From sequence record SRR2962707_1437: DNA of 54,294 nucleotides; one strand, 5' to 3'. Below, in pieces: positions 15,445 to 42,113 of this stretch (position 1 is the first letter of the stretch; every line of letters starts with the position of its first letter). The translations under genes and the position numbers were made by a program. The notes beneath the pieces are model-generated. The model had not been told where the DNA came from, searched no databases, and worked only from the letters and a program-made list of their open reading frames with translations.

Positions 15445-17097
15445 TCAACCCACCAGAACCGGCGCCCGGCATTTCGCGCCATGAACGATCATGTCCATCG
15501 CGCCGAGCTTTACGCCGAGTGTTGTGAGAAGGGAGTCCACGACCGCATCGAGCGGAACGAGCGCGGTGGAAATCGTTGCCACCAAGGTATTCACCAGACC
15601 GCTCAAACCGAAAATGGGTAGCCCGAGAACACTAAACCCTTCCAATTGAATGGCGCTGCCGAGGTCGGACATAAGAGTCACGTTTGAGGAAACGGTTTTG
15701 ACCATGCCGTCATCGATATCGGATCGGGAAAAATCAACTTCGGTAGGTCCGCTTGAAGCGGCTTGGGCGCTTCCGCTTATCCTCATCGAAGCAACAAGCA
15801 GGTTGATCGTTGCCCCGGAGCTATCGCTAGTCCCGATCCGCACGTTGACTGCGCCGGTGGTCGCGACGAGAGACGTCACTGTTCCTTCTGCAGCGCAGGG
15901 TATTTCAGATATTGTTGCCGTTCCCTCTGCGGCTGAGATGTAAGCCGGCACGCTTACGAGGCTACCGAACAGCGGAATTGTAAGCACGTCGGCACTCAAT
16001 TGAATGTCCACCTGCGATGTCTGCACGCTGTCGCCTACCTTGCCGACCGCCATGTGCGCCATCGGAGATCCGACGGTAATCGTGCCAGAAACGGAAGCGA
16101 GCGAGCCGAGATTGATATCCGTGTCAAATCCGACAACCTGCCCATCGCCCGCCGCCATCGCTGTTCCCGACAGGATATCGTAGACGTTGAACGGCAATTC
16201 GCTTCCCGCCGAGGATCCGATGGAACCGATGACACGGTTCGCGAAAGGCACCGCACCGATAATTTGGTCGAGCGGGACGGAAACATTGCCAACCGGCGCG
16301 AGCGCCGTCTGAAGCGCGAGCTTCGCGACAGATGGATCGCCCTCGAAATTTTCTCCGTTCAACACCTCGACCGCCGCCGCAACGATTTCGCCGATCGTCA
16401 CATCTGCACCGAGCAGGTCGCCATAAGTGTCCGATCCCGCGTAGAGCCCGGCTTCGACCGCGAGCGCATCGAGAAACTCGAGCGCGTCGATGTTTGCCGC
16501 CGCCAGCGCGTTGTAATCCACCAGCGACAGATTGATCGTCGTCCCGAGCAAGCCGCCGAGTATCTGATTGGCAAGACCCTCGTTAAGTTCCGCAAGCCGC
16601 GTTCCCGCCGAGAACGAAACGGTTTTCACATAGGCCGCCGTCGCCTCCGCTTCGATCTTGGTGAGGTTTCCGAAGCCGAAGAGACGCGCGAAGTAAGTCG
16701 GCGAGTCTGCGATCTTGCGCACCTTCACGGCATTGATGTCCGCTTCGTCGATACCCCCGCCCTCGGCGGTGAAGCGGTTGACGGCGAGTTTCGTCGGATC
16801 GGGCTCGTAGACGCCGCGCAAGGCTTCGATGCGGTCCGTTTGAAAGCCGTTCATGTCGAAGATTGCCTCGGCGGCGGCGCGCGTCTCTTCCTGCGCCTGC
16901 AGGTGCCGCACGGCGCCAAGCGCCGCCGCGTCGGTCGCAGCCTGCAGGTCGCGCCGCGCATAGAGCATCGCGCCCGTGTCGATCACGATCATCGCGACGG
17001 CAAGCGCAAGCAGAAGCGCGCCCACCGCCATGACGGATATGACGCCGCGCTCGTCTCTCGCAAATCGTCGCAAGAGCATTTCCAGCGATTGCGGCAT
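15445..17097 (-). CDS. tadG: TadG-family pilus assembly protein
   Basis: RFARDERG prepilin-like N-terminus, RDLQAATDAAALGA Tad domain, LGGLLG..INLSLVDYNAL segment. Confidence 0.85.
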   Translation of the reverse strand: MPQSLEMLLRRFARDERGVISVMAVGALLLALAVAMIVIDTGAMLYARRDLQAATDAAALGAVRHLQAQEETRAAAEAIFDMNGFQTDRIEALRGVYEPDPTKLAVNRFTAEGGGIDEADINAVKVRKIADSPTYFARLFGFGNLTKIEAEATAAYVKTVSFSAGTRLAELNEGLANQILGGLLGTTINLSLVDYNALAAANIDALEFLDALAVEAGLYAGSDTYGDLLGADVTIGEIVAAAVEVLNGENFEGDPSVAKLALQTALAPVGNVSVPLDQIIGAVPFANRVIGSIGSSAGSELPFNVYDILSGTAMAAGDGQVVGFDTDINLGSLASVSGTITVGSPMAHMAVGKVGDSVQTSQVDIQLSADVLTIPLFGSLVSVPAYISAAEGTATISEIPCAAEGTVTSLVATTGAVNVRIGTSDSSGATINLLVASMRISGSAQAASSGPTEVDFSRSDIDDGMVKTVSSNVTLMSDLGSAIQLEGFSVLGLPIFGLSGLVNTLVATISTALVPLDAVVDSLLTTLGVKLGAMDMIVHGAKCRAPVLVG

Positions 17098-17381
17098 TCT
17101 TTTTCCTCCGATGTTCCCGCCCCTGCCGGAAACATTGCCTCACGAAAGATCGTCACTCTAGGCTCTAACTAGAGTTCCGAGAGGTTAGCGAAGATTTAAG
17201 CGGAAATCTTCCGCATGCGCACCATGAGCACAAGGAACCACGCTTCTTAAGCTCCAGCACACAAATAGACATAACGGCACACCTCCTCATACGGCGCTGT
17301 TCTAGAAAAGGAGCAGGGAAAAGGGCAGTGGCTGGCCTCCACGTATCGGTGGGCCGCGCCGCTGGAAAAATGGAGGAACGT

Positions 17382-18458
17382 GTGTCGGGAAAAGCTCTGG
17401 TCACTTCCGTCGTATGTCTGGGTCTCGCAGGTTGTGTGACCGACAAGATTTCCATGTCGTCGGAAGTAGGTGGCGCCGGCAATAGTAGCATCGTATCCGC
17501 CCGGGCGAACAATTCCGGCGGCAGCGGGTTCGGTGGTGAGGAAGGCAGTTCCGGCCTTGGCGTCACGGGCAGCGGCGGTGTTCTGGACAATGTTGTAGGT
17601 ACTGACTCGATCGGCGGCTTCGTCGAAGAGGCGCTCGGTGCGGGAAATCCGGTCAGCGCCATTCTGGGGGCCGGGTCGGGCGGCTTGCTCCCGTCTGCGG
17701 CGGCTGCGCTTGCAGGCGACCCGAACGCGGAAGTCACCGGCCTAGGTATTCTCGGAAGCGGCGGCCTCGTTGCCGACCTCGCGGGCACCGATCTTGTTGG
17801 CGGCTCTTTCGACACAAGCAGCGTTCTCGGCGCGAGCATTGCCGGCGGCAATGACGGGCTTCTCGGCTCGCTCCTGAACGGCCAGCTCTCGAACCCCCCG
17901 CTTGCTCCCGTCGCCGGTCCGGTCGCCACGGCGCTTCCATCTGGCGTCCTTGGCGATGCGCTGTCGCAGGTGCCCGCCCTCGGCGTTACCGGCGAAGGCG
18001 GCCTCGTCGCCGACCTGATCGGTGTGGATCTCATCGGCAACCTGGCCGGTCAGAACACGCCGCTTGGCGGTGGCAATTCCGGCCAGCTCGGCGCGCTCGT
18101 GCCGACAGATGAGGCGCCGCTCGGTTATGCCGGTGAAACCTCGACCGGCCTCCTCAACATTGTATCGGGATCGCAAGCTGCGCCCGTCGGCGGCGCGAGC
18201 CTGCTGGCTCCGGCCGTCCCCGTGCTCGAAAATATTCTCGGCAGCGGCGCAAGCGTCATCGGCGGTGTCGCGGGGCCCGTCACAGGCGCCCTCGGCTCCG
18301 CGCCGGTGATCGGTGGCGTCGTCGGAGGCTCTTCCGCAACGCCCGCCGCCTCATCCGGCGGAAGCGCTCCGGCGGCGCCTGCCGGCGGTGTGCTTGCACC
18401 CGTCACCGGAACGCTCGGCAATGTACCGATTGTCGGAGGGCTCCTCGGCGGACGCTGA
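17382..18458 (+). CDS. Gly/Leu-rich repeat lipoprotein (paralog 1)
   Basis: GTG start after GGAGGA, lipobox LAG-C, three LGxxGxGG(V/L)xxx(L/V)xGxD repeats. Confidence 0.75.
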   Translation: MSGKALVTSVVCLGLAGCVTDKISMSSEVGGAGNSSIVSARANNSGGSGFGGEEGSSGLGVTGSGGVLDNVVGTDSIGGFVEEALGAGNPVSAILGAGSGGLLPSAAAALAGDPNAEVTGLGILGSGGLVADLAGTDLVGGSFDTSSVLGASIAGGNDGLLGSLLNGQLSNPPLAPVAGPVATALPSGVLGDALSQVPALGVTGEGGLVADLIGVDLIGNLAGQNTPLGGGNSGQLGALVPTDEAPLGYAGETSTGLLNIVSGSQAAPVGGASLLAPAVPVLENILGSGASVIGGVAGPVTGALGSAPVIGGVVGGSSATPAASSGGSAPAAPAGGVLAPVTGTLGNVPIVGGLLGGR

Positions 18459-18513
18459 GTTCCGCACTGCACCAACCCCCCGGGGGCTACTATCTTGGTG
18501 GCGCCTCAAGCGG

Positions 18514-18545: not shown

Positions 18546-18580
18546 CGTTTGCCGTGCGGTTGAAAGGGCGGATGCTCGCC

Positions 18581-20917: not shown

Positions 20918-21814
20918 ATGAGCTTCGCGCAACAGATCCAGCGCAACCCGATATTGCTGCTTGGCATAGGAATCGTTCTGATCGTTGCCGCTGTCGCGTT
21001 GATATGGCTCAACCTCTCTGCGCGCGACGCCGCCCCGGTTCAGACCGCGGAGCCTCGCAGCAGCAACGGGCTGAACGAGGAAACGGCCGTCGGCGTCCTC
21101 GTTGCCGCCCGGAATATTCAGCGCGGTCAGGCCCTTTCATCGGCGGACATTGTGCATCGCCGGATGGCTGGCCCCGCGCCCGCCGGCAGCTTCTCCGAGA
21201 CCGCCCCCGTGATCGGTCGCGTCGCGACCGTCGATATCCGTGCATCCCAGATCGTTTTCCAGGACAGCTTGAGCGCTGATCCGGCGGCCGCAGGTATTGC
21301 CGCGCTCGTTCCCGATGGACAGCGCGCTTTCGCCATCCGCGTTGCCGAGGAAGATATTGTCGGCGGCTTCCTTCAGGCCGGGGACCGTGTGGATGTCTTT
21401 GTGACATTGCCGGGTTCGGTTTACGTGCAGCAGGGCGGCATCGGCCAGCGGCAAGGCGATCTGAGCAAGAGCACGCTTCTCCTGCAGGACATGCAGGTGC
21501 TGGCGGTGGGGCCCGAGCTCTCTTCGGCAGGCACGGAAGTTCAAAGCGGTGCGCGCACCGTTTCCGTCGCAGCGCCGCCGGAGGCGCTGGCGCGGCTCGC
21601 GCTCGCCGGACGTCTCGGCCACATCACCCTCGCCATCCGAAACCCGTCCGACAGGAAAACATCGCAGCCTGAAGTCGTGGCGCTGGAGGATCTCCGGCCC
21701 GACACGTCTTCGGTTGCTGCCTCGGAGGAAAAGAAGGTCGAGACCGCTCCTCAGGGGCATCGCATAACGGTTTATTCGGGCGCCAGCCAGACCACTGTAA
21801 CGGCGCCGCGCTGA
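20918..21814 (+). CDS. cpaB: Flp pilus assembly protein CpaB/RcpC
   Basis: SAF domain VLVAARNI.RG, G.RAFAIRV...VGGFLQAGDRVDV. Confidence 0.92.
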   Translation: MSFAQQIQRNPILLLGIGIVLIVAAVALIWLNLSARDAAPVQTAEPRSSNGLNEETAVGVLVAARNIQRGQALSSADIVHRRMAGPAPAGSFSETAPVIGRVATVDIRASQIVFQDSLSADPAAAGIAALVPDGQRAFAIRVAEEDIVGGFLQAGDRVDVFVTLPGSVYVQQGGIGQRQGDLSKSTLLLQDMQVLAVGPELSSAGTEVQSGARTVSVAAPPEALARLALAGRLGHITLAIRNPSDRKTSQPEVVALEDLRPDTSSVAASEEKKVETAPQGHRITVYSGASQTTVTAPR

Positions 21815-21829
21815 GCGCATCGGGGGGGG

Positions 21830-23266
21830 GTGATGCACGAGCAGGTAAGACAAGCAACGTGGCGGAAACTGCGGAAGCGACGGCTGGCGGAAAGCGTGCC
21901 GGTCATTGCGCTGGTTCTCGCGTTTCTGGCCGCTTTCTTTTCGCTGGAAACCGGCGCGCTTGCGGCGAGCCGCAATCTCGACGTCCCCGTCGGCGGACAG
22001 CGCATCCTGAAGCTGGGCCAGACGATCGATCGCATCGCCATCGCGGACCCCTCCGTCATCGACGTGAAGGTCATCTCCTCCCGCGAACTGCGTATTCTCG
22101 GTCAGCGGGACGGCACGACCGATCTCACCATCTGGTTCACCGGTGATAGTTCGCTTTCCTATCATGTCGTTGTCGGCGCCGATCTGACCGGCTTGCGCGA
22201 CGAACTCGCGCGCGACCCCACGCTCTCGAATGTGAAGGCCGTCGAAACCGGCAGGGGCGTCGTGCTGAAGGGGCAGGTCTACAGCCTCGAAGATCGTCAG
22301 CGCGCAACGGAACTGGCCGGATCTTATCTTGGCGAGAACGTGAGCGACATGATGACCGTTGCCGATCGCCGCATGGTTGCCGTGGAGGTCCGCTTTGCAG
22401 CCGTCTCCACCAGCACGTTGAAGGCGCTCGGCCTGAACTTCCAGAGCCTCGACAACAACATCCAGATCGCGGCGATCGGTCCGAACGCCGGCACCGGCTT
22501 CGGTTACGACGCAGGCAACTTCGGGACGACAAATCCGGGCGGCGCCTATACCGGCCTCGAGCCCAACACGGACCTGCCGGTCGGACAGGCCTTCAATCTT
22601 CTCATGGCCTGGCCGGGCAGCAACATTCTCGGCGTGATCAGCGCCCTCAGCAACGCGAACCTCGCGCAGCTGCTCGCGGAGCCGACACTGCTTGTGAGAA
22701 GCGGCGAAGACGCGGAATTTCTGGCGGGTGGCGAAATTCCCGTGCCCGTTCCCCAATCGGGCGCCGGCAACGGCACGGTAACAATCGAATACAAGAAGTT
22801 CGGTGTGCAGCTCGCCGTAGCCGCGACCGTTCTCGACAACGACCGGATCGTTCTGAAGGTGAACCCGGAAGTCAGCGAGCTCGACTACGCCAATGCGCTG
22901 GTCGTGCAGGGCTTCCGCATACCCGCCCTGCGCACGCGCTCCACGCGCACGACCATCGAACTCGGCGACGGGCAGAGCTTCGTGCTTGCGGGGCTGATGT
23001 ACAGCTCCTCGGGCAACGTCGAGGATCGCGTGCCCGGCATCGGCGACCTGCCGGTCATCGGTTCGTTCTTCAAGCGCACCCAGAACGCGCGCGAGAGGCA
23101 GGAACTCATCATCGTGGCAACGCCGCGCCTCGTCTCGCCGATGGAAGCGGGTGACGTGCCCAAGCTGCCCGGCGAAGGGCAACTCTACGACCCGGACCTG
23201 GGTCAGGTGCTCCTCAATGCAGAAACGCTTGAGGACCATGTCGTCAAACACGGCTTGATGAGGTAA
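21830..23266 (+). CDS. cpaC: Tad secretin CpaC/RcpA
   Basis: IAIADP, LAEPTL...SGE.A.FLAGGEIPVP, T.IEL.DGQSF.LAGL, PG.GDLPVIG.FF. Confidence 0.95.
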   Translation: MMHEQVRQATWRKLRKRRLAESVPVIALVLAFLAAFFSLETGALAASRNLDVPVGGQRILKLGQTIDRIAIADPSVIDVKVISSRELRILGQRDGTTDLTIWFTGDSSLSYHVVVGADLTGLRDELARDPTLSNVKAVETGRGVVLKGQVYSLEDRQRATELAGSYLGENVSDMMTVADRRMVAVEVRFAAVSTSTLKALGLNFQSLDNNIQIAAIGPNAGTGFGYDAGNFGTTNPGGAYTGLEPNTDLPVGQAFNLLMAWPGSNILGVISALSNANLAQLLAEPTLLVRSGEDAEFLAGGEIPVPVPQSGAGNGTVTIEYKKFGVQLAVAATVLDNDRIVLKVNPEVSELDYANALVVQGFRIPALRTRSTRTTIELGDGQSFVLAGLMYSSSGNVEDRVPGIGDLPVIGSFFKRTQNARERQELIIVATPRLVSPMEAGDVPKLPGEGQLYDPDLGQVLLNAETLEDHVVKHGLMR

Positions 23267-23271
23267 GCGCG

Positions 23272-24468
23272 ATGCACCGTGTTCTCCTCATATCCGGCGA
23301 CAAGGACCTGATCGCTCATATCAAGCAATCGCTTGAGACAGTGGCGACGGTGATGTCCGTCGACCCTGCGGTCGACAACATGGTCGAGGTCGCGGAACAG
23401 TTCCAGCCGGGCGGCATTCTCGTCGACAGTGACGTTCGTCTCGGCGCACGAACGGCCTTCGAGCGGCTTTCTTCGATGCGCGAATGGTTCGCCGATCTGC
23501 CGATGATCGTGATCGGAAATGAAGCAGGCGCGCAACTCATCCTGACCGCGATGCGCGCGGGCGCGCAGGACTTCATCGACAGGGACGCTGCCGCAGACGA
23601 CATAAGGACAATCGTCTCGCGTCACCTCTCGGCCGAGCGCGCGCGTGCCGCCTCTTCCTCGCATCTCCTGACCGTGTTGAGCGTCGGTGCGGGAGAGGAG
23701 GATGGCGACTTTGCGCTCAATATGGCGGTCTCGATAGCATCCGCCCGGCCGCGCGACGGCGTGCTCTTCGTCGATCTTGGCCTGCCTGCAAGCAATACGT
23801 CGATTTCTCTCGGCCTCGACCTTGTCTTCCGCATCAAGGAAGCGGTGAAGGAAATGTCGCGGCTCGACAGGGCGCTTCTCGATTCCGCGCTCGCCCGTTG
23901 TCCGCGCTCCGGTCTCTACGTTCTGCCTCTCGCCTTGCATGGCGACACGGATACCTGGTCGGTGAATGTCCACGACCTCCGGGCGCTGCTCGAAATCTGC
24001 CAGTCGCTCTACGATGTCGTGATTGTTTCCTGCGGACCGTTCTCGCGTCAGGAAGAGCTTCTCAATCTGCCGTCCGACGGAGCCGTGTTTTTTCTTCCCT
24101 GCAACCAGCGCTTCACGTCGATCAAGGGCGCGGCTGAAATGATCCGCTTTGTGCGGCAGGTGCGCTCCAACAGGGAAGAGCCGGTCCTCGTCGTACACGA
24201 GTTTGCGCCCGGCATGGCACCAAGCGCGGCGGGCATCAGAAGCGCCGTTGGCGCTGTCCGCGCACTCGAACTTCCGGTACGCTGGCGCGAACTTGCCGAA
24301 AGCGTCAATCGTGGCGAGCCGCTCGCACTGGTCCCGTCCTCGCCTTACGCGCAACAGATGACGCGGCACCTGCAGGCCCTCAATCTTCTGCCCTACCGGG
24401 ATGAAGAGGAAGCCTCGGTCCAGCCCTTGAAGGTATGGGCGCGCAAATTTCTCGGGGTGCTGCCATGA
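23272..24468 (+). CDS. cpaE: CpaE/TadZ (receiver-like plus MinD-like)
   Basis: AMRAGAQDF, ALNMA, LFVDL, N.GEP; position between secretin and ATPase. Confidence 0.85.
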   Translation: MHRVLLISGDKDLIAHIKQSLETVATVMSVDPAVDNMVEVAEQFQPGGILVDSDVRLGARTAFERLSSMREWFADLPMIVIGNEAGAQLILTAMRAGAQDFIDRDAAADDIRTIVSRHLSAERARAASSSHLLTVLSVGAGEEDGDFALNMAVSIASARPRDGVLFVDLGLPASNTSISLGLDLVFRIKEAVKEMSRLDRALLDSALARCPRSGLYVLPLALHGDTDTWSVNVHDLRALLEICQSLYDVVIVSCGPFSRQEELLNLPSDGAVFFLPCNQRFTSIKGAAEMIRFVRQVRSNREEPVLVVHEFAPGMAPSAAGIRSAVGAVRALELPVRWRELAESVNRGEPLALVPSSPYAQQMTRHLQALNLLPYRDEEEASVQPLKVWARKFLGVLP

Positions 24469-25691
24469 AGTCCATGCAGCCCTACATGCTTGACGAGAAG
24501 GCGCCGGTTACGGACATCGGCGTGTCCGACAGCTATCAGGAAATCAAGTTTCGCGTTTTCGATCTGACGCTCGAATATCTCGATCAACAGGGCGTCGAAG
24601 GCGAAGCGATCCCCGTCGCCGCATTGCAGGATGAAATCGCAAGGGCGATAGCCGTCGTTCTGATGTCGCGCGGCATTGCACTCAACATGCGCGAGCGCGC
24701 GCAGTTGATCGAGGATGTGCAGAACGAGATTATCGGCTTCGGTCCGCTCGAGCCATTGCTCAGGGACCCCTCCGTCGATGACGTGATCGTCAACGGTCCC
24801 GCCAATATTTTCGTCGAACGGCACGGCGAACTGGAGCCGGTGCAGACGCGGTTCCGCGATGCGACTCATCTGATGAACATCATCCAGCGCATCGTCAGTC
24901 CGATCGGCCGCCGCGTCGACGAAGGCACGCCCTATGTCGATGGGCGGCTTCCCGACGGTTCCCGTGTCAACGTCATCATTCCGCCGGTGGCGCTCGACGG
25001 CCCCATTTTGTCGATCCGCAAGTTCAAGCACATTCCGCTGACGGGCGAAGACCTCGTGCGCAACGACACGATGACGCAGGAAGTGCTGAAATACATCTCG
25101 GGCGCCGTTCGCGGAAAACAGAACATTCTGATTTGCGGCGGCACCGGCTCGGGCAAGACCACGCTGCTGAATGTCTTGAGTTCCTACATCGGCGCGAAGG
25201 AACGGCTTGTTACGATCGAGGATGCCGCCGAACTGCAGCTCCAGCAATCTCACGTTGTCCGCCTCGAAACCCGGCCCGCCTCACCCGACGGCGCAACGGA
25301 CGTAACCGCGCGCGATCTCCTGCGAAACGCGCTGCGCATGCGTCCTGACAGGATCATCCTGGGCGAGGTGCGTTCCAGCGAAGCGATCGAGATGTTGCAG
25401 GCGATGGGCACGGGTCATGACGGCTCGATGGCGACGCTGCATGCGAATGCGCCGCGCGACGCGCTGGAGCGTCTTGAAATGCTGATTGGACTTCATGGCT
25501 TTTCAGCCGACCTTCAGGCCGTGCGCAGGTTCATCGCCGGCGCGGTGGATGTCGTCATCCACACGGCGCGCCAGTCGGACGGCAAACGAAAGATCGTTTC
25601 GGTTTGCGAAGTGGCGGGCATGGAAGGCCCGACCTATTCGTTGCGGGAAGTATTCTCCGGCGGCCAGTCGGAAAAGAAGCGTGTTGTATAG
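24465..25691 (+). CDS. cpaF: Tad ATPase CpaF/TadA
   Basis: [51 protein letters not shown]. Confidence 0.96.
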
Positions 25692-25706
25692 AGGCGGGAT
25701 GCCGCA

Positions 25707-26636: not shown

Positions 26637-26659
26637 TGGTGAGTGGAGAAAACGCGAGC

Positions 26660-29061: not shown

Positions 29062-29550
29062 ATGATCGTGTGTTTGACCAAACAGCACCGTGCTTCGCGC
29101 GGCGTTCCCCCGGCAGGGGGAACGCCCGCGAGGCGTCGGTTTGCACGGGATGACCGTGGAACGGTGGCAATTGAGTTTGCCTTCGTGGCGGCGATCTTTC
29201 TCACCATTCTCTTCGGCATCATGTCCTACGGTTTCCAGTTCGCCACGCGCATTGCGCTGTCTTATGCCGTGACGGAAGGCGGGCGTGCGGCGGTTGCCGG
29301 TCTGGATGACGCCGAGCGGGAGGAGTATGCGACGGCCGCCATGGTTCGCGCGCTCGATGCATATTCGCCGCTGGTCGATCCGGCGCTGGCCCAGCTCACC
29401 TTCGCTCAAGGGGTGTCCTCTGCTGGCGATACGCTGGAAATCGGTATCGATTATTCCGATGCCCGTTTCTCCTTTCTGCCGTTCATTGCGGCCCCTGCGG
29501 AAACGATCCGTGTCGAGACGACCTTCGTCGTAGCCGATCCGTCCGGGTAG
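29062..29550 (+). CDS. tadE: TadE-like minor pilin
   Basis: DDRG/TVAIEFAFV, A..EGGRAA. Confidence 0.9.
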   Translation: MIVCLTKQHRASRGVPPAGGTPARRRFARDDRGTVAIEFAFVAAIFLTILFGIMSYGFQFATRIALSYAVTEGGRAAVAGLDDAEREEYATAAMVRALDAYSPLVDPALAQLTFAQGVSSAGDTLEIGIDYSDARFSFLPFIAAPAETIRVETTFVVADPSG

Positions 29551-32850: not shown

Positions 32851-33024
32851 ATGAATTACGAATGTGAACTTAAGGATAGCGGCCAGAACCCGATGGACGA
32901 CCGTACGACGGATCTGTCGGGGGCTGTCGAAAGTTTGAGCGACGACGAACTCAGGGATCTGCTGGTTGCGCTCCTCTCCGAGTGGCGCAAGCGCTGCGAT
33001 CTGAACGAGCCGCTTCGCAACTAG
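32851..33024 (+). CDS. Hypothetical 57-aa protein, missing from ORF track
   Basis: GAGGA RBS; MNYECELKDSGQNPMDDRTTDLSGAVESLSDDELRDLLVALLSEWRKRCDLNEPLRN. Confidence 0.5.
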   Translation: MNYECELKDSGQNPMDDRTTDLSGAVESLSDDELRDLLVALLSEWRKRCDLNEPLRN

Positions 33025-33049: not shown

Positions 33050-33460
33050 CTATTCCGCGGACCCCGTGTCGCACGAGTATCCCCACGCCAGGCTCGTCGC
33101 CAGGTCGAGATTGGCGGGCAGGTCGCGGATCTGAGGACGCTTTTCCAGAAGAGCCAGGAAAAGCATGCGGACATTTTCCGCGCTCACGCCCTCTTCGGGC
33201 AGGCAGAAGTCGAGCTTGCTCATGTTACGGCGAGACACCGAGTAGTGCCCGAGAAATCCCTGAATATAAGCACCGCAGACACCGAGCCTCTGCCGTTCTT
33301 CGTCGGTAAGCGTTTTGGCGTCCTTGGGATTGCTGCACACCGCAGCGAGGTCGGCGCCGGTCTGCAGCGAATAGCTCGGCGCCGCGCTAGCCGGTGCAGC
33401 AACGGCGATTGCCGTCGCCAGTGCGCTCGCCGTGGCGATAAGCCGGATTGTCTTTCCCAT
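33050..33460 (-). CDS. Rap1a/Tai family periplasmic protein
   Basis: Signal peptide; TGADL...C, C.AYIQG, FCLP, L...P....PA......L...Y.C. Confidence 0.75.
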   Translation of the reverse strand: MGKTIRLIATASALATAIAVAAPASAAPSYSLQTGADLAAVCSNPKDAKTLTDEERQRLGVCGAYIQGFLGHYSVSRRNMSKLDFCLPEEGVSAENVRMLFLALLEKRPQIRDLPANLDLATSLAWGYSCDTGSAE

Positions 33461-33610: not shown

Positions 33611-35023
33611 TCAAAGGGTTCCCACCGCCGTTACCGTCGCTTCGAGAGGCACATTGGGGCGCAGCACGATGCGCGCCTGCGGCATCACCTTGCCTGCATT
33701 GACGACGTTGATATGTGCGCGCTGGGCGTAGGTGCCGAGGATCAGAACGGCTTCCAGTATTGCGAACCCCGCCCCGATGCAGATGCGCGGACCGCCGCCA
33801 AACGGCATGTAGACATGGCGCGGCCGCGCAGCCGCTTCTTCGCCGATGAAACGCATCGGATCGAAACAGTGGGGGTTGCGCCAGTGCCGCTTGTGACGGT
33901 GCAGAAGCCACGGTGAGATAAGAACCGCTTCGTCTTTCTGCACTATCAGGTCCGGCAGCAGCTCTGTCGTTTTGTCCGCCCGCCTCATGAGGTTGGCAAC
34001 GACGGGATAGAGCCTCAACGCTTCGTCGATCACCGCGCGGGTGAGAACGAGCGACGGAACGTCTTCGGCGGTCAGCGCCCGCCCGCCCGTCACCTGAAGC
34101 ACTTCCTCGCGAATGCGCTCCTGCCATTCGGGGTGAAGCGTCAGCAAATACCAGACCCACGTCATCGTCGTCGCAGTCGTCTCGTGACCGGCCAGCAGGA
34201 AGGTCGCCACTTCGTCGCGTATCTGGTCGATCGTCATGTCGTGCCCGCCCTCGCTTCGGGACGCGGCCATCAGACGATGGAGAAGGGTCGTGTCGGCATC
34301 TTCCGCTTTTGCTTCCTCGATGATCTTGCGGGCGAAGTTGTCGAGCTGGCGCCGCCCGGGATTGACGATCGCTTCGATGAAGCGGTCGCGCAAGCTGCCC
34401 GGAAGGAACGCCGATGCCAGAAACATCGCCGGAAACTTGTTGAGTGTTTCCGTCACCGTGTCTGAAATGCTCTCGACACTGTCGTCGAGATCGGCGCTGA
34501 GCACGGCCTCGCCGATAATCTCGAGCGTGAGCTTCGTCATCTCTTGGTCGATCCGGTAGATGCCTTGGTGCCGGAGAGCGCGCTGTGCGGAGCGTTCGGC
34601 GGCACGAACGAAGAGCGGCGCGAAATCCTTGATGCTCGAATGCTGGAAGACCGGTGCGGCGAGCTTCCTGTTTCGCCGCCACTCCGCACCTGAAGCCGTC
34701 AGAAGTCCGTTACCCAGCAACGGTTTCAAGATCGCAAGCTGATTATCTTCCTTCGGGAAATGCTCCGCTTCCGTCACCAGAACGCGGCGGATCGCTTCCG
34801 GCTCGTTAATCAGCACGCCTCGCCCGGATTGCGAGAGCCCGACGCGGAAATTGCAGTAGCGCACCTTGTACCAATAGTCCGGGTACAATGCGATGAGGTT
34901 GGCGAGTAGGTGCGGCTTGATAAGCGCCGTCGTAATGCCGGGTGCTTCCTTCGGAGGGACAGGCCGCGCAGGCAGGACATTGTTCGCATCGTCCTCGAAT
35001 GTCGTTTCCGCAACCGCTGCCAT
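33611..35023 (-). CDS. Cytochrome P450
   Basis: AGHETT, EALRLYP, FDP.RF, FGGGPRICIG heme motif. Confidence 0.96.
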   Translation of the reverse strand: MAAVAETTFEDDANNVLPARPVPPKEAPGITTALIKPHLLANLIALYPDYWYKVRYCNFRVGLSQSGRGVLINEPEAIRRVLVTEAEHFPKEDNQLAILKPLLGNGLLTASGAEWRRNRKLAAPVFQHSSIKDFAPLFVRAAERSAQRALRHQGIYRIDQEMTKLTLEIIGEAVLSADLDDSVESISDTVTETLNKFPAMFLASAFLPGSLRDRFIEAIVNPGRRQLDNFARKIIEEAKAEDADTTLLHRLMAASRSEGGHDMTIDQIRDEVATFLLAGHETTATTMTWVWYLLTLHPEWQERIREEVLQVTGGRALTAEDVPSLVLTRAVIDEALRLYPVVANLMRRADKTTELLPDLIVQKDEAVLISPWLLHRHKRHWRNPHCFDPMRFIGEEAAARPRHVYMPFGGGPRICIGAGFAILEAVLILGTYAQRAHINVVNAGKVMPQARIVLRPNVPLEATVTAVGTL

Positions 35024-35049
35024 TTGCCGTTCCTCCTTTGATGCGAGCG

Positions 35050-35898
35050 TCAGATCGGTTTCACTTCCGCACCGCCGAACTCGCTCATCACCGACGACAC
35101 GAGTTCACAATTATCGTGATCCCAGGGATGAAAATCCTTCTTGTAGAAGTCGAGATAGGGACGCATTAGTCCGCGCAGCGCGCCCTTCTCGCCGAAGAGA
35201 AACTTGAAGCCGCCGCGCCAGAGTTCGAAGCGCGAGCCTTCGTAGTCGCGCAGCAGCAAACGCATGTTGCGGATCACATGCTGCGTGAACTCGAACGTGA
35301 CGAGCACCATGGAAAGGCGGCGGCGCCATGTCTTGCCGCCCACGGCGACAAAGACGTCGAACGCGACGGCCTTGTGTTCGGTTTCTTCCAGCGCATGCCA
35401 GCGCCAGAGCGCCGCCATCTCGGGATGAGCACCCTCAAGCCCTTGCGGGTTGCGGAAGGTCGCGTCGGCGAGAATGGCGGTTAGATGTTCGAAGGCGACC
35501 GTTCCGCTCAACTGCTGCTTCGGCGTGAGCCACTTGCGCGCCATCTTCTGCCGGAAGTTGACCGCCCGTTCCATTTTCTCGAGCGATACGCCGCGCGCCG
35601 TGCACAGCGCCTCGTTGTAGCGCTGGTGTTCGCGCCGGTGCACCGCTTCCTGCGCCATGAAGCCGCGCACGCGCCGCTCCAGCTCCGGGTCGTCGAACTT
35701 TCCGCGAAACGCTTTCACGCTGTCGATGAAGAATTGCTCTCCAAGCGGAAACAGGATCGACATGGCGTCGAAGAACGCGGTCTTGAAGGCATCGCCCCCA
35801 TGCCAGTTCGTCGCCAGCGTCTCGTCGATGTTGAACTGACGGTTCCGCGGCACAATTTCGACATTTTGCGGCGTGCGGGAAAGGCTTTGGCTGTGCAT
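35050..35898 (-). CDS. Predicted metal-dependent hydrolase (ferritin-like)
   Basis: FPLGEQFFIDSV, QEAVHRREH, EHLTA, WHALEETEHKAVAFD. Confidence 0.9.
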   Translation of the reverse strand: MHSQSLSRTPQNVEIVPRNRQFNIDETLATNWHGGDAFKTAFFDAMSILFPLGEQFFIDSVKAFRGKFDDPELERRVRGFMAQEAVHRREHQRYNEALCTARGVSLEKMERAVNFRQKMARKWLTPKQQLSGTVAFEHLTAILADATFRNPQGLEGAHPEMAALWRWHALEETEHKAVAFDVFVAVGGKTWRRRLSMVLVTFEFTQHVIRNMRLLLRDYEGSRFELWRGGFKFLFGEKGALRGLMRPYLDFYKKDFHPWDHDNCELVSSVMSEFGGAEVKPI

Positions 35899-36016
35899 CT
35901 TGGCCTCCTTGGTTCGGCTTGGCGCTCGTCGGCGCCTTCTGAGTGCCTACATAAGCATTTGACGCCGGGGCAGGAGGTCATCTCCGGCCAAGCTGGGGGT
36001 CATAAACGGACACGCG

Positions 36017-37024
36017 ATGCGCATTGAACCGGGTTATGTTGAAATCGTCGCCGCTGTGCTGAAGGAATCGGGGCAGGACGCGGAGAATTTTCCGCTGCCG
36101 CGAACCGGTCCCGTGTCCGAAGACGAATTTCGCGGGATGTCCGAGAACCTCGTGCGCCTCACCGGCGATCCTGCAATCGCCTTGCGGCTCGGCGCAAATA
36201 TGCATCTCGGCACGCATGGTCTTCTCGGTCACGCCATTCTGAGCAGCCGCAGCCTGCGTCAGGCCGCCGGTCTCATGATCCAGTACAGCCCCCTTCAGGG
36301 CGCGCAGGGTCATATCCAGCTTGCCTTCACCAGCGATCACGCTGTTCTCACCTTCGAGCCGCCGTTTGAAGTCGGCGGAGCACCGCATTTCCTTGTCGAG
36401 CTGTTCTTCGCAAGCGTTCTCGCCGCACTTCGCCAGCTCATTGGTCCGTTGCCGGATGAATGCCGCCTTGAGCTGGCTTACGCGCCCGTCATGCCCGATG
36501 AGGTCTATCGCCGCCATCTCGGCGTGAACGTGTCGTTCGGCCACGAGGTCAACCGCTTCGTCGGCCCGAACGATCGTATAGATCAGCCGCTTTCGGCAGC
36601 GGGCATCCCCGTCGCCGAAATGTATCGCAGGCAATGCGAGAAGTTGTTGCGCGACATGGATGCGGCCGACGGCGTAGCGGGCGAAGTCCGGCGCATGGTG
36701 CTCGGCGCACGCGGAAAGTTCCCCGGTATCGAAGAGGCTGCCCGGCGGTTGAACGTCAGCGAACGTACGTTGCGTCGGCGTCTGTCGGATGAGGGCGTTT
36801 CGTATCGGGGTATTGTCGACGACGTGCGCAGCTATCTCGCGCGTGAATATCTGCGTGAAACACCGCTTTGCGTTGCCGATGTTGCGTCGTTGCTCGGCTT
36901 CGACGATGTCGCAAACTTCCGCCGTGCCTTCAGAAAATGGAATGGTTGTGCGCCGCAGTATTTTCGTGCGCGCGTCGCGAGCCAAAATGGCACGGGCACT
37001 CCGTCGACTGACCAAGTCGAATGA
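36017..37024 (+). CDS. AraC family transcriptional regulator
   Basis: HGLLG.A N-domain, SERTLRRRL..EG, LLGF.D..NF.RAFRKW.G..P. Confidence 0.93.
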   Translation: MRIEPGYVEIVAAVLKESGQDAENFPLPRTGPVSEDEFRGMSENLVRLTGDPAIALRLGANMHLGTHGLLGHAILSSRSLRQAAGLMIQYSPLQGAQGHIQLAFTSDHAVLTFEPPFEVGGAPHFLVELFFASVLAALRQLIGPLPDECRLELAYAPVMPDEVYRRHLGVNVSFGHEVNRFVGPNDRIDQPLSAAGIPVAEMYRRQCEKLLRDMDAADGVAGEVRRMVLGARGKFPGIEEAARRLNVSERTLRRRLSDEGVSYRGIVDDVRSYLAREYLRETPLCVADVASLLGFDDVANFRRAFRKWNGCAPQYFRARVASQNGTGTPSTDQVE

Positions 37025-37127
37025 GGTGAACAAACGCACACGCAATCGCACATGCTTCCACACCATAAAACGCTCGTGTGACTTAGGCTCCCTGGCAGTT
37101 CAACGATGCGAGGGAAGGATAAGGCTG

Positions 37128-37973
37128 ATGTCCATGAATGTAACCAAGACGGCACTGGCGATGGGAGCAATGCTTCTCGCCACTGCGTGCGGTTCCAGCG
37201 ATTCTACATTTGGCGGTGGTAGCGGCGGCGGAGGTGGCGGCGGTGCGCCGGCTTCGGTCACGGCTCTCGGCGCGACCGGCGAAGGCGGTGTAACCGATAC
37301 GCTCGGGCTCTCCGCTCTCACCGACCCGCTTCTCGGCACCGAAGGCGTGCTCGGCGGCGGCGACGAAGGCTTGATCGGCGGTCAGATACCCGACGAACTG
37401 GCAGACGGCGTCGCGCCTGTGGCAGACGGCCTTGCGCCGGTTGTGACGGCTTTTGACAATGTGCCGCTCGGCATGGTCACGGATCAGGTTCCCTCGCTTG
37501 GCGTTTCTGGCGAAGGCGGCCTCGGCGAGGATCTTCTGGGTCAGGATCTGACCGGCATGCTGCTCGGCGAAACCGGTACCGTTCCGGGAATTCTCGCGGG
37601 TGGCAATGACGGCCCGCTCGGCAGCGCCATCCCCGAAGGCGCGATTCCCGGTCTGCCCGGCGGCGATGGTGGCGACCCGCTCGCGCCGTTGACGGATCTC
37701 GTTGCCGGTCTCACTGGTGGCGAACTGCCCGGTCTTCCCGGCGGTGACGGCGGCGATCCGCTCGCCCCGGTCACGGACCTGGTCGGCGGCCTCGCGGGCG
37801 GTGAGTTGCCGGGCCTCCCGGGTGGCGATGGCGGTGATCTGCTTGCCCCCGTCACGGACCTCGTCGGCGGTCTCGCCGGTGGTGGTGGCGGTGCTGACCC
37901 GCTCGCTCCGGTTACCGATCTCGTCGGCGGCCTTGCAGGTGGCGGACTTCCTGCCCTTCCCGGCACCGAATAA
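37128..37973 (+). CDS. Gly/Leu-rich repeat lipoprotein (paralog 2)
   Basis: Lipobox ATA-C, poly-Gly linker, two LGxxGEGG repeats, C-terminal tandem repeats; start reassigned. Confidence 0.8.
   Translation: MSMNVTKTALAMGAMLLATACGSSDSTFGGGSGGGGGGGAPASVTALGATGEGGVTDTLGLSALTDPLLGTEGVLGGGDEGLIGGQIPDELADGVAPVADGLAPVVTAFDNVPLGMVTDQVPSLGVSGEGGLGEDLLGQDLTGMLLGETGTVPGILAGGNDGPLGSAIPEGAIPGLPGGDGGDPLAPLTDLVAGLTGGELPGLPGGDGGDPLAPVTDLVGGLAGGELPGLPGGDGGDLLAPVTDLVGGLAGGGGGADPLAPVTDLVGGLAGGGLPALPGTE
37650..37952 (+). repeat. Intragenic 81-bp (27-aa) tandem repeat, about 3.7 copies
   Basis: Units start at 37650, 37731, 37812 (GLPGGDGGDPLAPVTDLVGGLAGGELP consensus), then a partial copy. Confidence 0.9.
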
Positions 37974-38028: not shown

Positions 38029-38043
38029 CATTTCAACGGGCAG

Positions 38044-38796
38044 TCACCGGCCGGTTGCGGCCTGTTGTCCGTTGGCCAGAAAATGGCCGAGCCAGGCCTC
38101 CGGGCCGCCGGAGAGGCAGTCTTCAGGACAGTTTTCCGCGCTCTCGTCTCGCGCGATCCTCCATGCCTCATTGTTCCGCTTCAGCGAAATCGTCCGTGCA
38201 GGCTGCGCCTGCGCATCGCGCCAGACGGCGTGCAGTTCGCTGCCGCCATCCATCTGGATTTCCCAGGGAATGCTCGTGTCGAAGCGGAGCGACGGATCCT
38301 TGATCATGCGAAGATGAGCGTGGTCCGTCAGCGCATCCAGCATCGGCGGAACGAGATCGAGATGCATGAGATAGGCGCGGTCGCCGCGCAGATGCGCGCG
38401 CCACGAAGGAATGCGTCTGGGAAAAACAAGCGGCACCGGGGCGTCGTCCGGATCGGTGCGGCAGCTCGCGATCCGTTGCGCCACGCGCATGGCCGGGGTC
38501 TTGCTCAGAACGAAGACCCATTGCCTGTACCGGTTATCGGCCGCCATGGCGGTCGAAGGGATATTGGACTGCAGGAATTTCATGAGATCGCCGGAGCCGC
38601 TGAACAGCGCAGTGGCGATAAGCGACATGGAACCGGTCAGGACGATGGTGTCGTCCCTGATGTCGCTGAGGGAGGCTGAGGCAAGCGGCTTTTTTGTCAA
38701 TGTTCCTGTCCGGGTTCTGCGGTTGCGTTGGCCCGCGCTGCCTCGATTTTTCGTTTCGGCGCCGGATACGATGGTTGTCGTTTCCTCTGCCGGCAA
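38044..38796 (-). CDS. Hypothetical protein
   Basis: Longest ORF filling the gap between paralogs 2 and 3; start uncertain; no family recognised. Confidence 0.45.
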   Translation of the reverse strand: MPAEETTTIVSGAETKNRGSAGQRNRRTRTGTLTKKPLASASLSDIRDDTIVLTGSMSLIATALFSGSGDLMKFLQSNIPSTAMAADNRYRQWVFVLSKTPAMRVAQRIASCRTDPDDAPVPLVFPRRIPSWRAHLRGDRAYLMHLDLVPPMLDALTDHAHLRMIKDPSLRFDTSIPWEIQMDGGSELHAVWRDAQAQPARTISLKRNNEAWRIARDESAENCPEDCLSGGPEAWLGHFLANGQQAATGR

Positions 38797-39196
38797 AAAT
38801 GTGGCGCCCGCGTCCTTGCGGACAGCGGGCGCCGTCTTCCGTTGCGAGGCCGGAGCTTTCGGCGGTTTCCCCGGGGTGAGGGATGCTGCATCGGGATCGA
38901 GGAGAATCGTTACGATCGAAATGACAGCTGGGGAGACGGCTTGAGCGGCCTACCACGCAGCAGAAGTTCTGTTCTGGGATCGTTGCAACGGCACGGCCCG
39001 CGAGTCCATCGGAATTACAAAGAATTACACTCACACAATTGCGCTTGAGAGCTTGCGCCTTCCTGTCTTCCGTTCCTCGGATATTCGTACACGGATAAAA
39101 CCGCGCACCACGCCGAGCCCGAACATATCGCCACATTTCTCTACACCGTCTCTCCTTGGGAATTTGCTACGCAAGTTCACACGGGAGGAAGACATC

Positions 39197-40069
39197 ATGC
39201 GCTCATCACTGATTGCTCTTGTTGCGTCCGGCCTGTTGTCGGGCTGCATAACGTCGGGCGGAGACGGCGAGCCGTCCGCCATTCGATCAGGTTCCGTTTC
39301 AAGCACTTCGGCGATAGCCAGCACGCCGCTGGGCGTTGGCGGCGAAGGAGGCGTTTCCGAGGAACTTCTCGGTACCGACCTGCTGACGCCGCTGATCGGC
39401 GGCGGCGGCCTTGTCGGCGCCACATTGGGCGGCGGCGGTGACGGCCTGCTCGCAGGTGATCTGCCTGCGGAGAGCCCGATTCCCGCCGGCGCCGGGGCGC
39501 CTCTCACAAGTGCACTGGACCAGGTGGGCGCGCAGGCCCCCTCGCTCGGCGTATCGGGTAACGGCGGGCTCGGCGAAGACCTTTTCGGCCACGACATTGC
39601 CGGTCTTCTCGTCGGCACGGACGGTGGCCTGGTTCCCGTCCTTCTGTCGGGGGGCAACGAAGCGCAGCTCGGCAGTATTGTGCCGGAGGGTTCCGCGCCC
39701 CTGACGCCCGTCGGCGATGTCGTCGCCGGCGCTATCGACGGCGCACAGGCCAACTCCTCGGATGGAAACCTGAACGCGCTGGCGCCTGTGGTCAGCCCGA
39801 TCATTCTCAGCGCACTTGGCGCTGGCGGCGAAGGCGAGGGCCCGATCCCCGGTGTTGCGCTTCCCTCGCTTCCGATCGAACAGCTTGGCCCGGTCGTCGT
39901 GCCGGCCGCTAACGCGGCGACGCAGATACTGGCGACACCGCTGCTGCCGAACGGAACGACGGCAGCCGACATCGCACTCCCGGTCGTTCTGGGAGCTGCC
40001 GCAGGTGTTGCCGACGCCACACTGCCGCTCGAAACGGTCAACGACACCATCATCACAATATTGCCGTAG
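39197..40069 (+). CDS. Gly/Leu-rich repeat lipoprotein (paralog 3)
   Basis: GGAGG RBS, lipobox LSG-C, two LGVxGxGG repeats. Confidence 0.8.
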   Translation: MRSSLIALVASGLLSGCITSGGDGEPSAIRSGSVSSTSAIASTPLGVGGEGGVSEELLGTDLLTPLIGGGGLVGATLGGGGDGLLAGDLPAESPIPAGAGAPLTSALDQVGAQAPSLGVSGNGGLGEDLFGHDIAGLLVGTDGGLVPVLLSGGNEAQLGSIVPEGSAPLTPVGDVVAGAIDGAQANSSDGNLNALAPVVSPIILSALGAGGEGEGPIPGVALPSLPIEQLGPVVVPAANAATQILATPLLPNGTTAADIALPVVLGAAAGVADATLPLETVNDTIITILP

Positions 40070-40118
40070 AGGCTCGCGCGGGGGCGCCGATTCAGCGAGT
40101 TGAGGGAGGAATAAGAGA

Positions 40119-42113
40119 ATGAAATTTCAGGTTTTGCGTTCGATTGTTGCGCTAGTGGGGATGCTCGCCTTTCCCGCGGGGGTGCAGGCCGCCCAGATCA
40201 AGTTGGGCGACGTCGACATCGCCATCAGCACGACTGTTTCGGCCGGCGCGAGCATGCGCGTGTCGGAACAGAGCTGCGAATACATCTCCGTCTTCAACGG
40301 CGGTTGTCTCGCACCGGGCGGCACGGACTATGACGTCAATTCCGACGACGGAAATGTCAACGTCGAACGTGGCGACTTCATTTCGACGCCCGTAAAAATC
40401 ATTTCCGAAGCCGATATGAAGTGGGACAGGTTCGGTTTCTTCGTCCGCGCCAAGGCTTTCTACGACTACATCGGTAATGAGGAGCTCGGTAATGGCGGCG
40501 GCAAGTACGGTCCCGTGCTGGCCGGCGGGTCGCAGCGCCGTCCTCTCGAAGACGAATTCCGCGGCGACGATGCCCGCAACCTGCAGGGCCGCTCATTCGA
40601 TCTGCTTGACGCTTTTGCCTATGGCAACTTCCTCGTCGCCGATATGCCCACGACAGTGCGTATCGGCCGTCAGGCGGTCAACTGGGGTGAAAGCCTCTTC
40701 ATCCCCGGCGGCGTTTCGGCCTATCTGCCGCTCGACGTGTCGGCCCTTGTGCGGCCTGGCGTTGAGTTGAAGGAAATTTTCCTGCCGCAGAATTCGATCT
40801 TCGCGAGCGTCGGTCTGCCCGCGAACCTGACCTTCGAAGCGCAGTATGTTTTCCAGTGGGAAGAATCGGTTCTTCCCGCTTGCGGCAGCTTCTTCTCGCC
40901 GAGTGACGCGGCGGCGGCTGGCTGCCGCTACGCCCTCAGTGGCGGTGAAGTCTACAATCTCGGTGGCGGGCTGAGTTACACGCCGACAGCCTTCATCCCG
41001 CGCGGTCCCGACGAGAGGGCCGACGATCAGGGGCAGTTCGGTCTGGCGCTTCGTTACTATGCCGATTGGCTCAACAAGGGCACGGAACTCTCCGCCTATT
41101 TTGTCAACTTTCACTCGAAACTGCCTTTCGGCACTTTCACGGCGTCGACGCCGACGCTGACGACGGCCGCCTTGCAGGCATTCTGCAATCCTGCCGTGCC
41201 GGGCGCATTGTCGAGCCCAAGCTGTACCTCCGCAACGCCGCTAAACGACGACGCTGGGCGTCCTGTTTCGTTCGGCCAGGGAATTTTCGCGGAAGCGGCT
41301 GGCGACAACAAAAATCTGATCGTTCAGTATCCTGAAGACATCGAAATGTTCGGGACGAGCTTCAACACAACGATCCCGATCATCGGCGATGCGACCGCAT
41401 TGTCCGGCGAACTTGCCTACTATCCGGACATGCCCTTTCAGCTCGACACCAGCGAGATTCTCGGCGCGGATATCGAGAACTTCGGCTACACGCCGGGCCC
41501 GGGCGAACCCGACTACTATGAGGGTCCGGCAGTCGCACCCGGCTCGGTCATTCCCGGTTATCGGAGGACGAAGGCCTTGCACGGCCAGATCTACACGCTG
41601 AGCACACTCACGCCGTCCGATCCGATCGTGAATTTCCTCGACGGCAACCTGCTCATTCTGGTCGCCAATGTCGGCTTCCAGTACTTGCCGGATGCAAGCG
41701 GCAACCGCTACGCCATTCCGCGCTCCAGCGAAACGCACGATAATCCTGGCACCGCTGCGACGTTGGGCGACAACTGCATTCGTCTCGGCACCTGCTCCAT
41801 CGACCCGGTCTATGCCTCGACATTCTCCTGGGGATATCGCTTGCTGGCCCAGATGGAATACAACAACGCCTTCGGCACGCCCTACACACTGAGCCCGCAG
41901 ATCATCTGGAGCCACGATGTCAGCGGCTATTCGGCGGGACCCATCGGTCCGGGCTTCGTCGAAGGCAAGAAGGCGGTGACGCTCGGCGTAACGGCGAGCT
42001 ATCTCGACCAGTACCGCCTGACGGTCGACTACACCAACAACTTCGGCGCGAAATACCGCAACGGTTCCTACGACAAGGATTTCGTCAGCATGACCGCGTC
42101 ATACACGTTCTAG
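40119..42113 (+). CDS. DUF1302 family outer-membrane protein
   Basis: T.SAGASMR, NSDDGN.N, LLDAF.YG, R.GRQ.VNWGESLF, PG.ELKE...P, DKDFVS.TASYTF. Confidence 0.88.
   Translation: MKFQVLRSIVALVGMLAFPAGVQAAQIKLGDVDIAISTTVSAGASMRVSEQSCEYISVFNGGCLAPGGTDYDVNSDDGNVNVERGDFISTPVKIISEADMKWDRFGFFVRAKAFYDYIGNEELGNGGGKYGPVLAGGSQRRPLEDEFRGDDARNLQGRSFDLLDAFAYGNFLVADMPTTVRIGRQAVNWGESLFIPGGVSAYLPLDVSALVRPGVELKEIFLPQNSIFASVGLPANLTFEAQYVFQWEESVLPACGSFFSPSDAAAAGCRYALSGGEVYNLGGGLSYTPTAFIPRGPDERADDQGQFGLALRYYADWLNKGTELSAYFVNFHSKLPFGTFTASTPTLTTAALQAFCNPAVPGALSSPSCTSATPLNDDAGRPVSFGQGIFAEAAGDNKNLIVQYPEDIEMFGTSFNTTIPIIGDATALSGELAYYPDMPFQLDTSEILGADIENFGYTPGPGEPDYYEGPAVAPGSVIPGYRRTKALHGQIYTLSTLTPSDPIVNFLDGNLLILVANVGFQYLPDASGNRYAIPRSSETHDNPGTAATLGDNCIRLGTCSIDPVYASTFSWGYRLLAQMEYNNAFGTPYTLSPQIIWSHDVSGYSAGPIGPGFVEGKKAVTLGVTASYLDQYRLTVDYTNNFGAKYRNGSYDKDFVSMTASYTF

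Follow-up and report, generated by a model that had tools for sequence, protein, structure and literature searches.

Two-partner secretion (TPS), or type Vb secretion, is described as the work of a TpsA-TpsB pair (FHA/FhaC, CdiA/CdiB, ShlA/ShlB), the transporter being built of POTRA domains and an Omp85 barrel (PMC5422565). The Burkholderia cepacia complex encodes collagen-like lipoproteins (PF15984; bcal1520-1524) that are Gly-rich and lie by an outer-membrane gene (PMC10224339, PMC10303873). A locus with features of both was found between positions 15445 and 42113 of a DNA stretch of 54,294 nucleotides, sequence record SRR2962707_1437 (the window). It contains a Tad pilus locus, a TpsB transporter, three predicted lipoproteins with Gly/Leu repeats (LPA, LPB and LPC) and a DUF1302 outer-membrane barrel. 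From the sequence, the chances were judged evenly balanced that the TpsB brings lipid-anchored Gly/Leu-repeat adhesins to the cell surface, where they would act with the Tad pilus.

The locus TpsB has the type Vb architecture. However, no TPS-domain, beta-helical TpsA is encoded nearby or in the relatives G025 and G039, and the candidate cargo consists of lipoproteins of 280-360 residues. Curli (CsgA/CsgG) and Fap (FapC/FapF) also combine several repeat proteins with a nearby outer-membrane channel. Their subunits are N/Q-rich, Pro-poor, non-lipidated proteins with beta-forming repeats, whereas the window cargo is N/Q-poor and Pro-rich, with predicted lipid anchors and no predicted strands. 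In the Burkholderia set the Tad genes are ordered as in the window, the TpsB clade is sister to that of the locus, and the tails carry LAPVT-type repeats as well. The set differs in that the window has a Gly/Leu repeat of about 75 residues in place of Collagen_mid, convergent LPA and tpsB genes, a two-component system, a phased promoter box and no prepilin peptidase in the locus. The proposed job, that of an outer-membrane barrel encoded near its surface lipoproteins, recalls the Slam/type XI system (DUF560; PMC9090332, PMC8406197), but the window barrel is of the ShlB/POTRA_2 type without a DUF560 match and its cargo carries low-complexity Gly/Leu repeats. The DUF1302/DUF1329 pair resembles the window in having a DUF1302 barrel with an AraC gene near lipid-type enzymes (PMC13499233; 10.1101/2020.07.04.188060; 10.1101/072470), but in the locus DUF1329 is not adjacent and in one sub-clade LPC lies directly 5' of DUF1302.

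A profile built from 31 lipoprotein rows, A1, was employed to follow the repeat family across genomes; genome-wide statements were taken from relatives of the window and not from its own genome. The family occurs in 24 of 73 Parvibaculales genomes. The window TpsB matched 49 of the 73, with an orthologue (57-90% identity) in 24 and at most 33% identity in all others. The TpsB orthologue and the repeat family occupy the identical 24 genomes. At most 600 bp separate tpsB from a lipoprotein gene in 23 of these; in G069 alone the two are on separate contigs. Tad genes were present in the locus of all nine genomes fetched from the 24. The linkage of lipoprotein, TpsB and Tad proposed in an earlier note on this DNA was thus borne out. 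Additionally, the divergent lipoproteins P0083, P0100 and P0097 match three divergent TpsBs (46-51% identity) in the length of their longest contigs, a weak sign that the genes may adjoin.

The earlier note had called the TpsB partnerless, and in the relatives this description holds. The protein consists of POTRA domains and a barrel that ends in Phe, with profile matches to CdiB (E 6e-42) and FhaC (2e-31). No TPS-domain cargo was found among the 57 window open reading frames (ORFs) scanned. The TPS domain is absent from two of the five relatives searched, G025 and G039, whose only ShlB-family gene is the locus TpsB, the absence in G039 being less sure because that genome is split over several contigs. 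Of the four TPS proteins found in G001, G002 and G028, every one has a different TpsB within 9 kb. Absence of the plug helix was considered as a mark unique to the lipoprotein-linked TpsBs and was rejected, as TpsA-linked relatives have equally short N-termini. In the open-access literature searched, mostly at the level of listings, no proposal of TpsB-mediated display or export of such lipoproteins was found.

A tree of 43 TpsB rows (LG+G4) placed the six Parvibaculum rows in one clade and the 11 Collagen_mid-linked rows in another, each at 100/100. The two jointly form one clade at 97/97, apart from eight FecR-linked rows and 16 TpsA-linked rows, some of the TpsA labels being derived from a large neighbouring ORF or the record annotation and not from a TPS match. 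The rows were the 45 of a first set minus 12 near-duplicates plus 10 plasmid rows, and a quick mixture-model tree of the 45 rows gave the same split, with 97 by the Shimodaira-Hasegawa-like approximate likelihood-ratio test.

The FecR-linked rows form a clade of TpsA-less TpsBs of their own (96/87 in the 43-row tree). Alongside these TpsBs lies a FecR-domain protein whose tail is rich in Gly and Ala, in most cases together with a CHASE2 kinase (loci L003-L007, L009, L010, L013-L015 and L029; genomes G013, G071, G017, G012, G015, G007, G073, G072, G068 and G044, and a Bosea plasmid). FecR was confirmed by Pfam on three proteins and CHASE2 on one, and the rest were assigned by similarity of the sequence starts. 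The arrangement is possibly a trans-envelope signalling unit.

Collagen_mid was found in 10 of 401 sampled Pseudomonadota genomes. Sixteen regions cover all 21 matches; in ten regions, one per genome, a TpsB lies within 450 bp, and in six of these ten Tad is also alongside. The remaining six regions hold lone paralogues. In G072 and G073, which are Parvibaculales without the repeat family, two Collagen_mid genes adjoin a TpsB with no Tad nearby. Among seven plasmid regions around the best TpsB matches, those from Caballeronia, Cupriavidus and Ralstonia show Tad, Collagen_mid and TpsB together and the other four do not. The Tad gene order of the window is that of the Burkholderiales loci L025-L027.

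The two passenger classes have in common a lipobox, a Gly-rich linker and LAPVT-type C-terminal repeats, a likeness to be read with the caveat of low complexity. Pfam gave no Collagen_mid match at E<=1 for LPA, LPB or LPC, and no Collagen_mid was found in five relatives. When A1 was compared with nine Collagen_mid proteins by hhalign, the lipobox alone aligned, and A1 found none of the nine. A whole-protein Collagen_mid hidden Markov model matched LPB, chiefly in its low-complexity LAPVT-type tail, and neither LPA nor LPC. An Atlas feature score of 0.87-0.88 between LPA and Collagen_mid clusters was taken as a lead only. The two classes therefore share a layout and differ in the middle.

In B. 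cenocepacia, bcal1523 and bcal1524 encode Collagen_mid lipoproteins beside bcal1522 and the flp operon (PMC10224339). The available text of that paper lists bcal1522 as an outer-membrane 'heme utilization-related' protein and does not mention ShlB; from its size, its location and the homologous loci, BCAL1522 is probably a TpsB. BCAL1523 and BCAL1524 are induced jointly with the flp genes (PMC7970998). Furthermore, BCAL1524 is present in outer-membrane vesicles, and its mutant has a modest autoaggregation defect (17.7% versus 11.9% residual optical density; PMC10303873). The window locus is the Parvibaculum counterpart of the Burkholderiales cassette of Tad, TpsB and Collagen_mid. Its core is an alphaproteobacterial variant of the Burkholderia-type set of Tad, TpsB and Gly-rich lipoprotein with a different middle domain, because its TpsB clade is sister (97/97) to the TpsBs that flank Collagen_mid. 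The system had been presented as a candidate undescribed one; the gene neighbourhood of the Collagen_mid form is already in print (PMC10224339). What this analysis newly adds is a second passenger family, tied to a sister TpsB clade, together with the promoter box and the setting apart of DUF1302.

The features of the locus are as follows.

15445-17097, minus strand: TadG-like pseudopilin with Tad and Tad_C domains (Pfam), adjoining LPA in relatives too
17258-17282, plus strand: phased triple-repeat box 5' of LPA
17370-18458, plus strand: LPA, predicted lipoprotein with lipobox Cys22, three Gly/Leu repeats and a C-terminal LAPVT-type segment
18581-20257, minus strand: TpsB/Omp85 transporter, POTRA domains and barrel with terminal Phe (Pfam POTRA_2, ShlB), convergent with LPA
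20918-28317, plus strand: Tad assembly genes cpaB, secretin, cpaE, tadA, tadB, tadC and tadD (Pfam)
28317-28565, plus strand: small predicted lipoprotein 3' of tadD; a Ralstonia locus has DUF3613 in that place
28810-29037, plus strand: Flp pilin with poly-Gly tail (Pfam)
29062-29550, plus strand: TadE-like pseudopilin (Pfam)
29557-31695, plus strand: histidine kinase, kept in all six orthologous regions that extend that far
31702-32478, minus strand: response regulator of the OmpR family that may bind the phased box
33050-33460, minus strand: small exported Rap1a-like protein
33611-37024: catabolic genes, namely P450 (minus), metal-dependent hydrolase (minus) and AraC (plus)
37039-37063, plus strand: phased triple-repeat box 5' of LPB
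37128-37973, plus strand: LPB, predicted lipoprotein (Cys21) with two Gly/Leu repeats and four C-terminal LAPVT-type repeats
39122-39146, plus strand: phased triple-repeat box 5' of LPC
39197-40069, plus strand: LPC, predicted lipoprotein (Cys17) with two Gly/Leu repeats, 49 bp 5' of DUF1302
40119-42113, plus strand: DUF1302 outer-membrane barrel, accessory (Pfam)

Every gene class that had been named for the locus exists, as judged from the ORF listing, Pfam and NCBIfam scans and the translations. The DNA of the window resembles that of Parvibaculum. Named homologues of LPA and LPC come from this genus, and the TpsBs of G001 and G002 are 90% identical to that of the window.

The claim that the three lipoproteins are paralogous was confirmed by pairwise local scores of 284-318 against shuffled means of 106-135 (z 10.5-13.4), with none of 500 shuffles exceeding 195. 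The repeat unit of about 75 residues is rich in Gly and Leu, begins LG[VAI]xGxGG and is present in two or three copies per protein. LAPVT-type tail repeats number four in LPB, one in LPA and none in LPC. Each protein was called a lipoprotein from a lipobox motif and a conserved Cys, without a signal-peptide predictor, and the Cys is kept in at least 90% of 31 aligned rows. The proteins have no Pfam family at E<=1 and the repeat has no NCBIfam family, the only match being a weak signal-peptide one for LPC. Among 1.84 billion representatives A1 found 38 proteins, of which a few resemble the family through low complexity only. A divergent member, P0107, carries the name Rhizomicrobium, and a metagenome scan with it returned five loci that match its collagen-like stretch alone. 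At least six GXY triplets follow the lipobox in 13 of 79 family rows, and the member P0101 exceeds the Pfam Collagen cut-off.

The mature proteins contain 2-6% N+Q, 6-10% Pro and 19-30% Gly, with 22-34 acidic and 0-3 basic residues, the composition of LPA being counted from Cys16, six residues before the lipobox Cys22. Two AlphaFold models of LPA (from 31 and 67 sequences) were of low confidence, with a predicted local distance difference test score (pLDDT) of 55.4 and predicted template modelling scores of 0.23 and 0.19; at pLDDT 55 they weakly indicate short helices and zero strands. The low N+Q, the high Pro, the predicted lipid anchor and the lack of strands in these low-confidence models speak against the Fap- or curli-like fibre that had been proposed. 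An ORF without a known family lies between LPB and LPC (38044-38796, minus strand). It was present in two of eight related regions tested, G001 and G002, at 85% identity, and was read as a recent insertion.

The intergenic DNA of the locus contains CACAC at 5.3 per kb. Over the rest of the window the density is 0.65 per kb, and in a G002 control comprising 43 kb of intergenic DNA it is 1.05. In the orthologous upstream regions ACA occurs three times at 10-bp spacing, and a 25-nt phased box was drafted from these regions after inspection. The box has three matches in the window, 51-88 bp 5' of LPA, LPB and LPC, and is absent from a G002 control of 358,218 bp. Genome-wide in five relatives, 13 of 27 box matches precede lipoprotein genes; the evidence is positional, because the total is at the background given by the reversed pattern (25 matches). 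In G054, which was not used for the pattern, two of three matches lie at lipoprotein genes. A matrix trained on seven LPA sites gave the LPC site 18.7 bits, the second-highest score in the window, versus 16.8 for the best control, and the LPB site fell outside its top ten. Sites 5' of the receiver genes, the Rap1a-like gene and, in four relatives, the pilin had scores mostly within the control range, and the box was not found 5' of tpsB or cpaB in the window.

A motif shared among the intergenic regions had been claimed without its sequence. A common box does precede all three lipoprotein genes and may be the one meant. Co-regulation with the pilus is weakly supported, no box being seen at tpsB or cpaB. 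Binding by OmpR-family proteins is compatible with tandem repeats of 10 bp, and the box thus points to the regulator encoded at 31702-32478 as a candidate binder. Between the genes for the response regulator and the Rap1a-like protein, a 57-aa ORF (32851-33024, plus strand) has a weak phased box 5', shows codon-like conservation in relatives and matches no family.

Two other motifs were set aside. A CtrA-like box had seven matches in the window against 2.35 expected; only two were in the locus region, and it was not enriched in the locus intergenic DNA (p 0.22). Two CtrA-like sites with one mismatch, at 14900-14914 (5' of a receiver gene) and 17185-17199 (between tadG and LPA), were not significant against shuffles. 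A GC-rich 12-mer in seven of 15 intergenic regions (best of 15 shuffles, six) lies partly in hairpins and is not conserved.

The Tad/Flp set comprises flp, cpaB, secretin, cpaE, tadA, tadB, tadC, tadD and the pseudopilins. No prepilin peptidase was found among the scanned window ORFs. All five relatives have just one A24 peptidase, encoded roughly 5 kb away from a different, second tadA (48% identity); pilin processing would therefore be in trans. The Flp pilin (28810-29037) ends in AAAGAG and a glycine run, an ending that is unusual among Flp pilins. Next to tadG lie an IS1595-like ORF with a zinc ribbon and, on their own, two genes for receiver domains (13133-13864 and 14457-15350). Because they are kept there in the orthologous loci fetched, the IS1595-like ORF is suggested to be a domesticated regulator and not a mobile element.

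DUF1302 has been tied to DUF1329, to AraC/LuxR regulators and to fatty-ester growth or envelope export, and its function is unsettled (PMC13499233, 10.1101/2020.07.04.188060, 10.1101/072470). DUF1302 matches occur in all 73 Parvibaculales genomes. The distance from a lipoprotein gene to DUF1302 is at most 600 bp in 14 of the 24 genomes and 5-10 kb in six, and in four the two are on different contigs. A 17-row tree placed the LPC-linked copies in one clade, including a duplicate that carries an LPC-like gene (G024, G028). The sister of that clade occurs in AraC-DUF1302(-hydrolase) cassettes, including those of G042 and G043, two genomes devoid of the repeat family, and G053 has the same AraC-DUF1302-hydrolase cassette on another branch. 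The hydrolase and AraC travel with DUF1302. The DUF1302 was therefore read as a fused-in cassette or uptake barrel, in place of the exporter proposed by the earlier note, since its sister clade sits in such cassettes even where the lipoproteins are missing; LPC and DUF1302 may nevertheless be specific partners. The description of this barrel as solo holds locally, no DUF1329 being found among the scanned window ORFs, but DUF1329 is encoded elsewhere in all five relatives searched. At L035 (G028:C1:1062000-1081900), away from Tad, one cassette comprises AraC, DUF1329, AraC, DUF1302 and a repeat-family lipoprotein. A distant DUF1302 in G028 has a repeat lipoprotein 3' of it. AupA of Marinobacter was considered as a DUF1302 member and was set aside, since the text of PMC5989066 mentions neither a DUF nor Pfam.

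Surface display through the TpsB would begin with export of LPA, LPB and LPC by Sec and lipidation at the lipobox Cys. None has Asp at +2, and delivery to the outer membrane by Lol would follow if the +2 Asp rule for Lol sorting, which comes from E. coli, applies. The POTRA domains may then capture the unfolded Gly-rich chain, which would be threaded through the TpsB barrel with the lipid anchor kept. At the surface the lipoproteins may give self- or surface-adhesion through their short amphipathic repeats, and their genes would be activated by the OmpR-type regulator of the locus. A wider evolutionary reading was held somewhat more tentatively. The TpsB branch would have left two-partner secretion and turned into a translocon dedicated to surface lipoproteins, an Omp85 barrel thus doing work like that of Slam. 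It would serve two passenger families with unrelated middles, Collagen_mid in many Pseudomonadota and the Gly/Leu repeat in Parvibaculum. Their common lipid anchor and LAPVT-type tail may be the export signal, and together with Tad pili they would build an adhesive layer.

Several observations weigh against display through the TpsB. LPA and tpsB are convergent and not a single operon, and no box was found 5' of tpsB. The middle domains of the two passenger classes have no detectable homology. The rows of the tree were chosen for their likeness to the query, and several of the branches are long. The 24 genomes look like one clade, so that their co-occurrence is close to a single evolutionary event. 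The presence of BCAL1524 in vesicles is not proof of exposure on the outer face. Finally, the neighbouring TpsB clade pairs with FecR/CHASE2 signalling genes and not with cargo, and TpsA-less TpsBs therefore need not be exporters. That pairing is the main support for an alternative considered unlikely, in which the lipoproteins would remain on the periplasmic side of the outer membrane and partner or plug a TpsB that acts as a sensor or pilus-accessory pore and not as an exporter; the kinase, the OmpR regulator and the two lone receiver proteins of the locus would suit it as well. However, the collagen-like stalks in homologues and the autoaggregation defect of the BCAL1524 mutant fit a role on the outer face, and several paralogues per TpsB, some of them distant, suit cargo more than a fixed subunit.

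The convergent orientation of tpsB and its lack of the lipoprotein box would also be expected if the lipoproteins were surface adhesins delivered through the Tad secretin, Bam or vesicles, with the TpsB exporting other cargo, such as the TadG-like or Rap1a-like protein, whose genes are conserved in the locus. This is quite improbable; Collagen_mid-TpsB pairs occur without Tad in the fetched 20 kb in four of the ten sampled genomes, as they do in G072 and G073, and because they persist without Tad, the lipoprotein and not Tad is the constant neighbour. It is very improbable that the block is merely the inherited gene order of one genus, with TpsB and lipoproteins functionally unrelated. The repeat family was found in one of 401 sampled Alphaproteobacteria, the centre genome itself, and for this reason the 24 genomes are not independent; but the sister TpsB clade pairs likewise with a different lipoprotein family across distant taxa. 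Least credible was the proposal of the earlier note, in which the lipoproteins would leave through TpsB and/or DUF1302, polymerise into an amyloid-like fibre or coat and serve attachment to hydrophobic substrates such as oil. In agreement with it are the three repeat paralogues and their common promoter box, the LPC-DUF1302 adjacency in 14 of 24 genomes, which was carried along in a duplication, and the second adjacency with a distant DUF1302. Nevertheless, the composition, the predicted lipid anchor and the absence of strands from two weak models do not resemble such subunits, and DUF1302 is present in every genome of the order, with its sister clade in lipoprotein-free cassettes that include those of G042, G043 and G053.

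Further from the locus, PhyR and an ECF sigma factor with an HWE/HisKA_2 kinase (7790-9455) make up a general stress response cluster. An alcohol dehydrogenase ORF (42970-43668) looks broken by a frameshift or deletion, with a normal N-terminus followed by an out-of-frame, Arg/Pro-rich middle. In a Type I-like restriction-modification pair (48392-53536), methylase and specificity parts are fused in one gene (865 aa), and the other encodes an 844-aa helicase/nuclease.

The passage of lipoproteins across the outer membrane is understood in few cases, and the cargo described for TpsB transporters is large beta-helical TPS proteins. A branch of TpsBs that goes with small lipoproteins offers a directly testable two-gene system, TpsB and LPA. 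The Parvibaculum locus supplies a second passenger family, and thus a natural swap for locating the export signal in an organism that is harmless, and adds a defined promoter box and a candidate regulator in the same locus. If display through the TpsB is true, it would explain how the Burkholderia collagen-like lipoproteins, already tied to autoaggregation, arrive at the surface, and it would amount to a route by which bacteria build adhesive surfaces.

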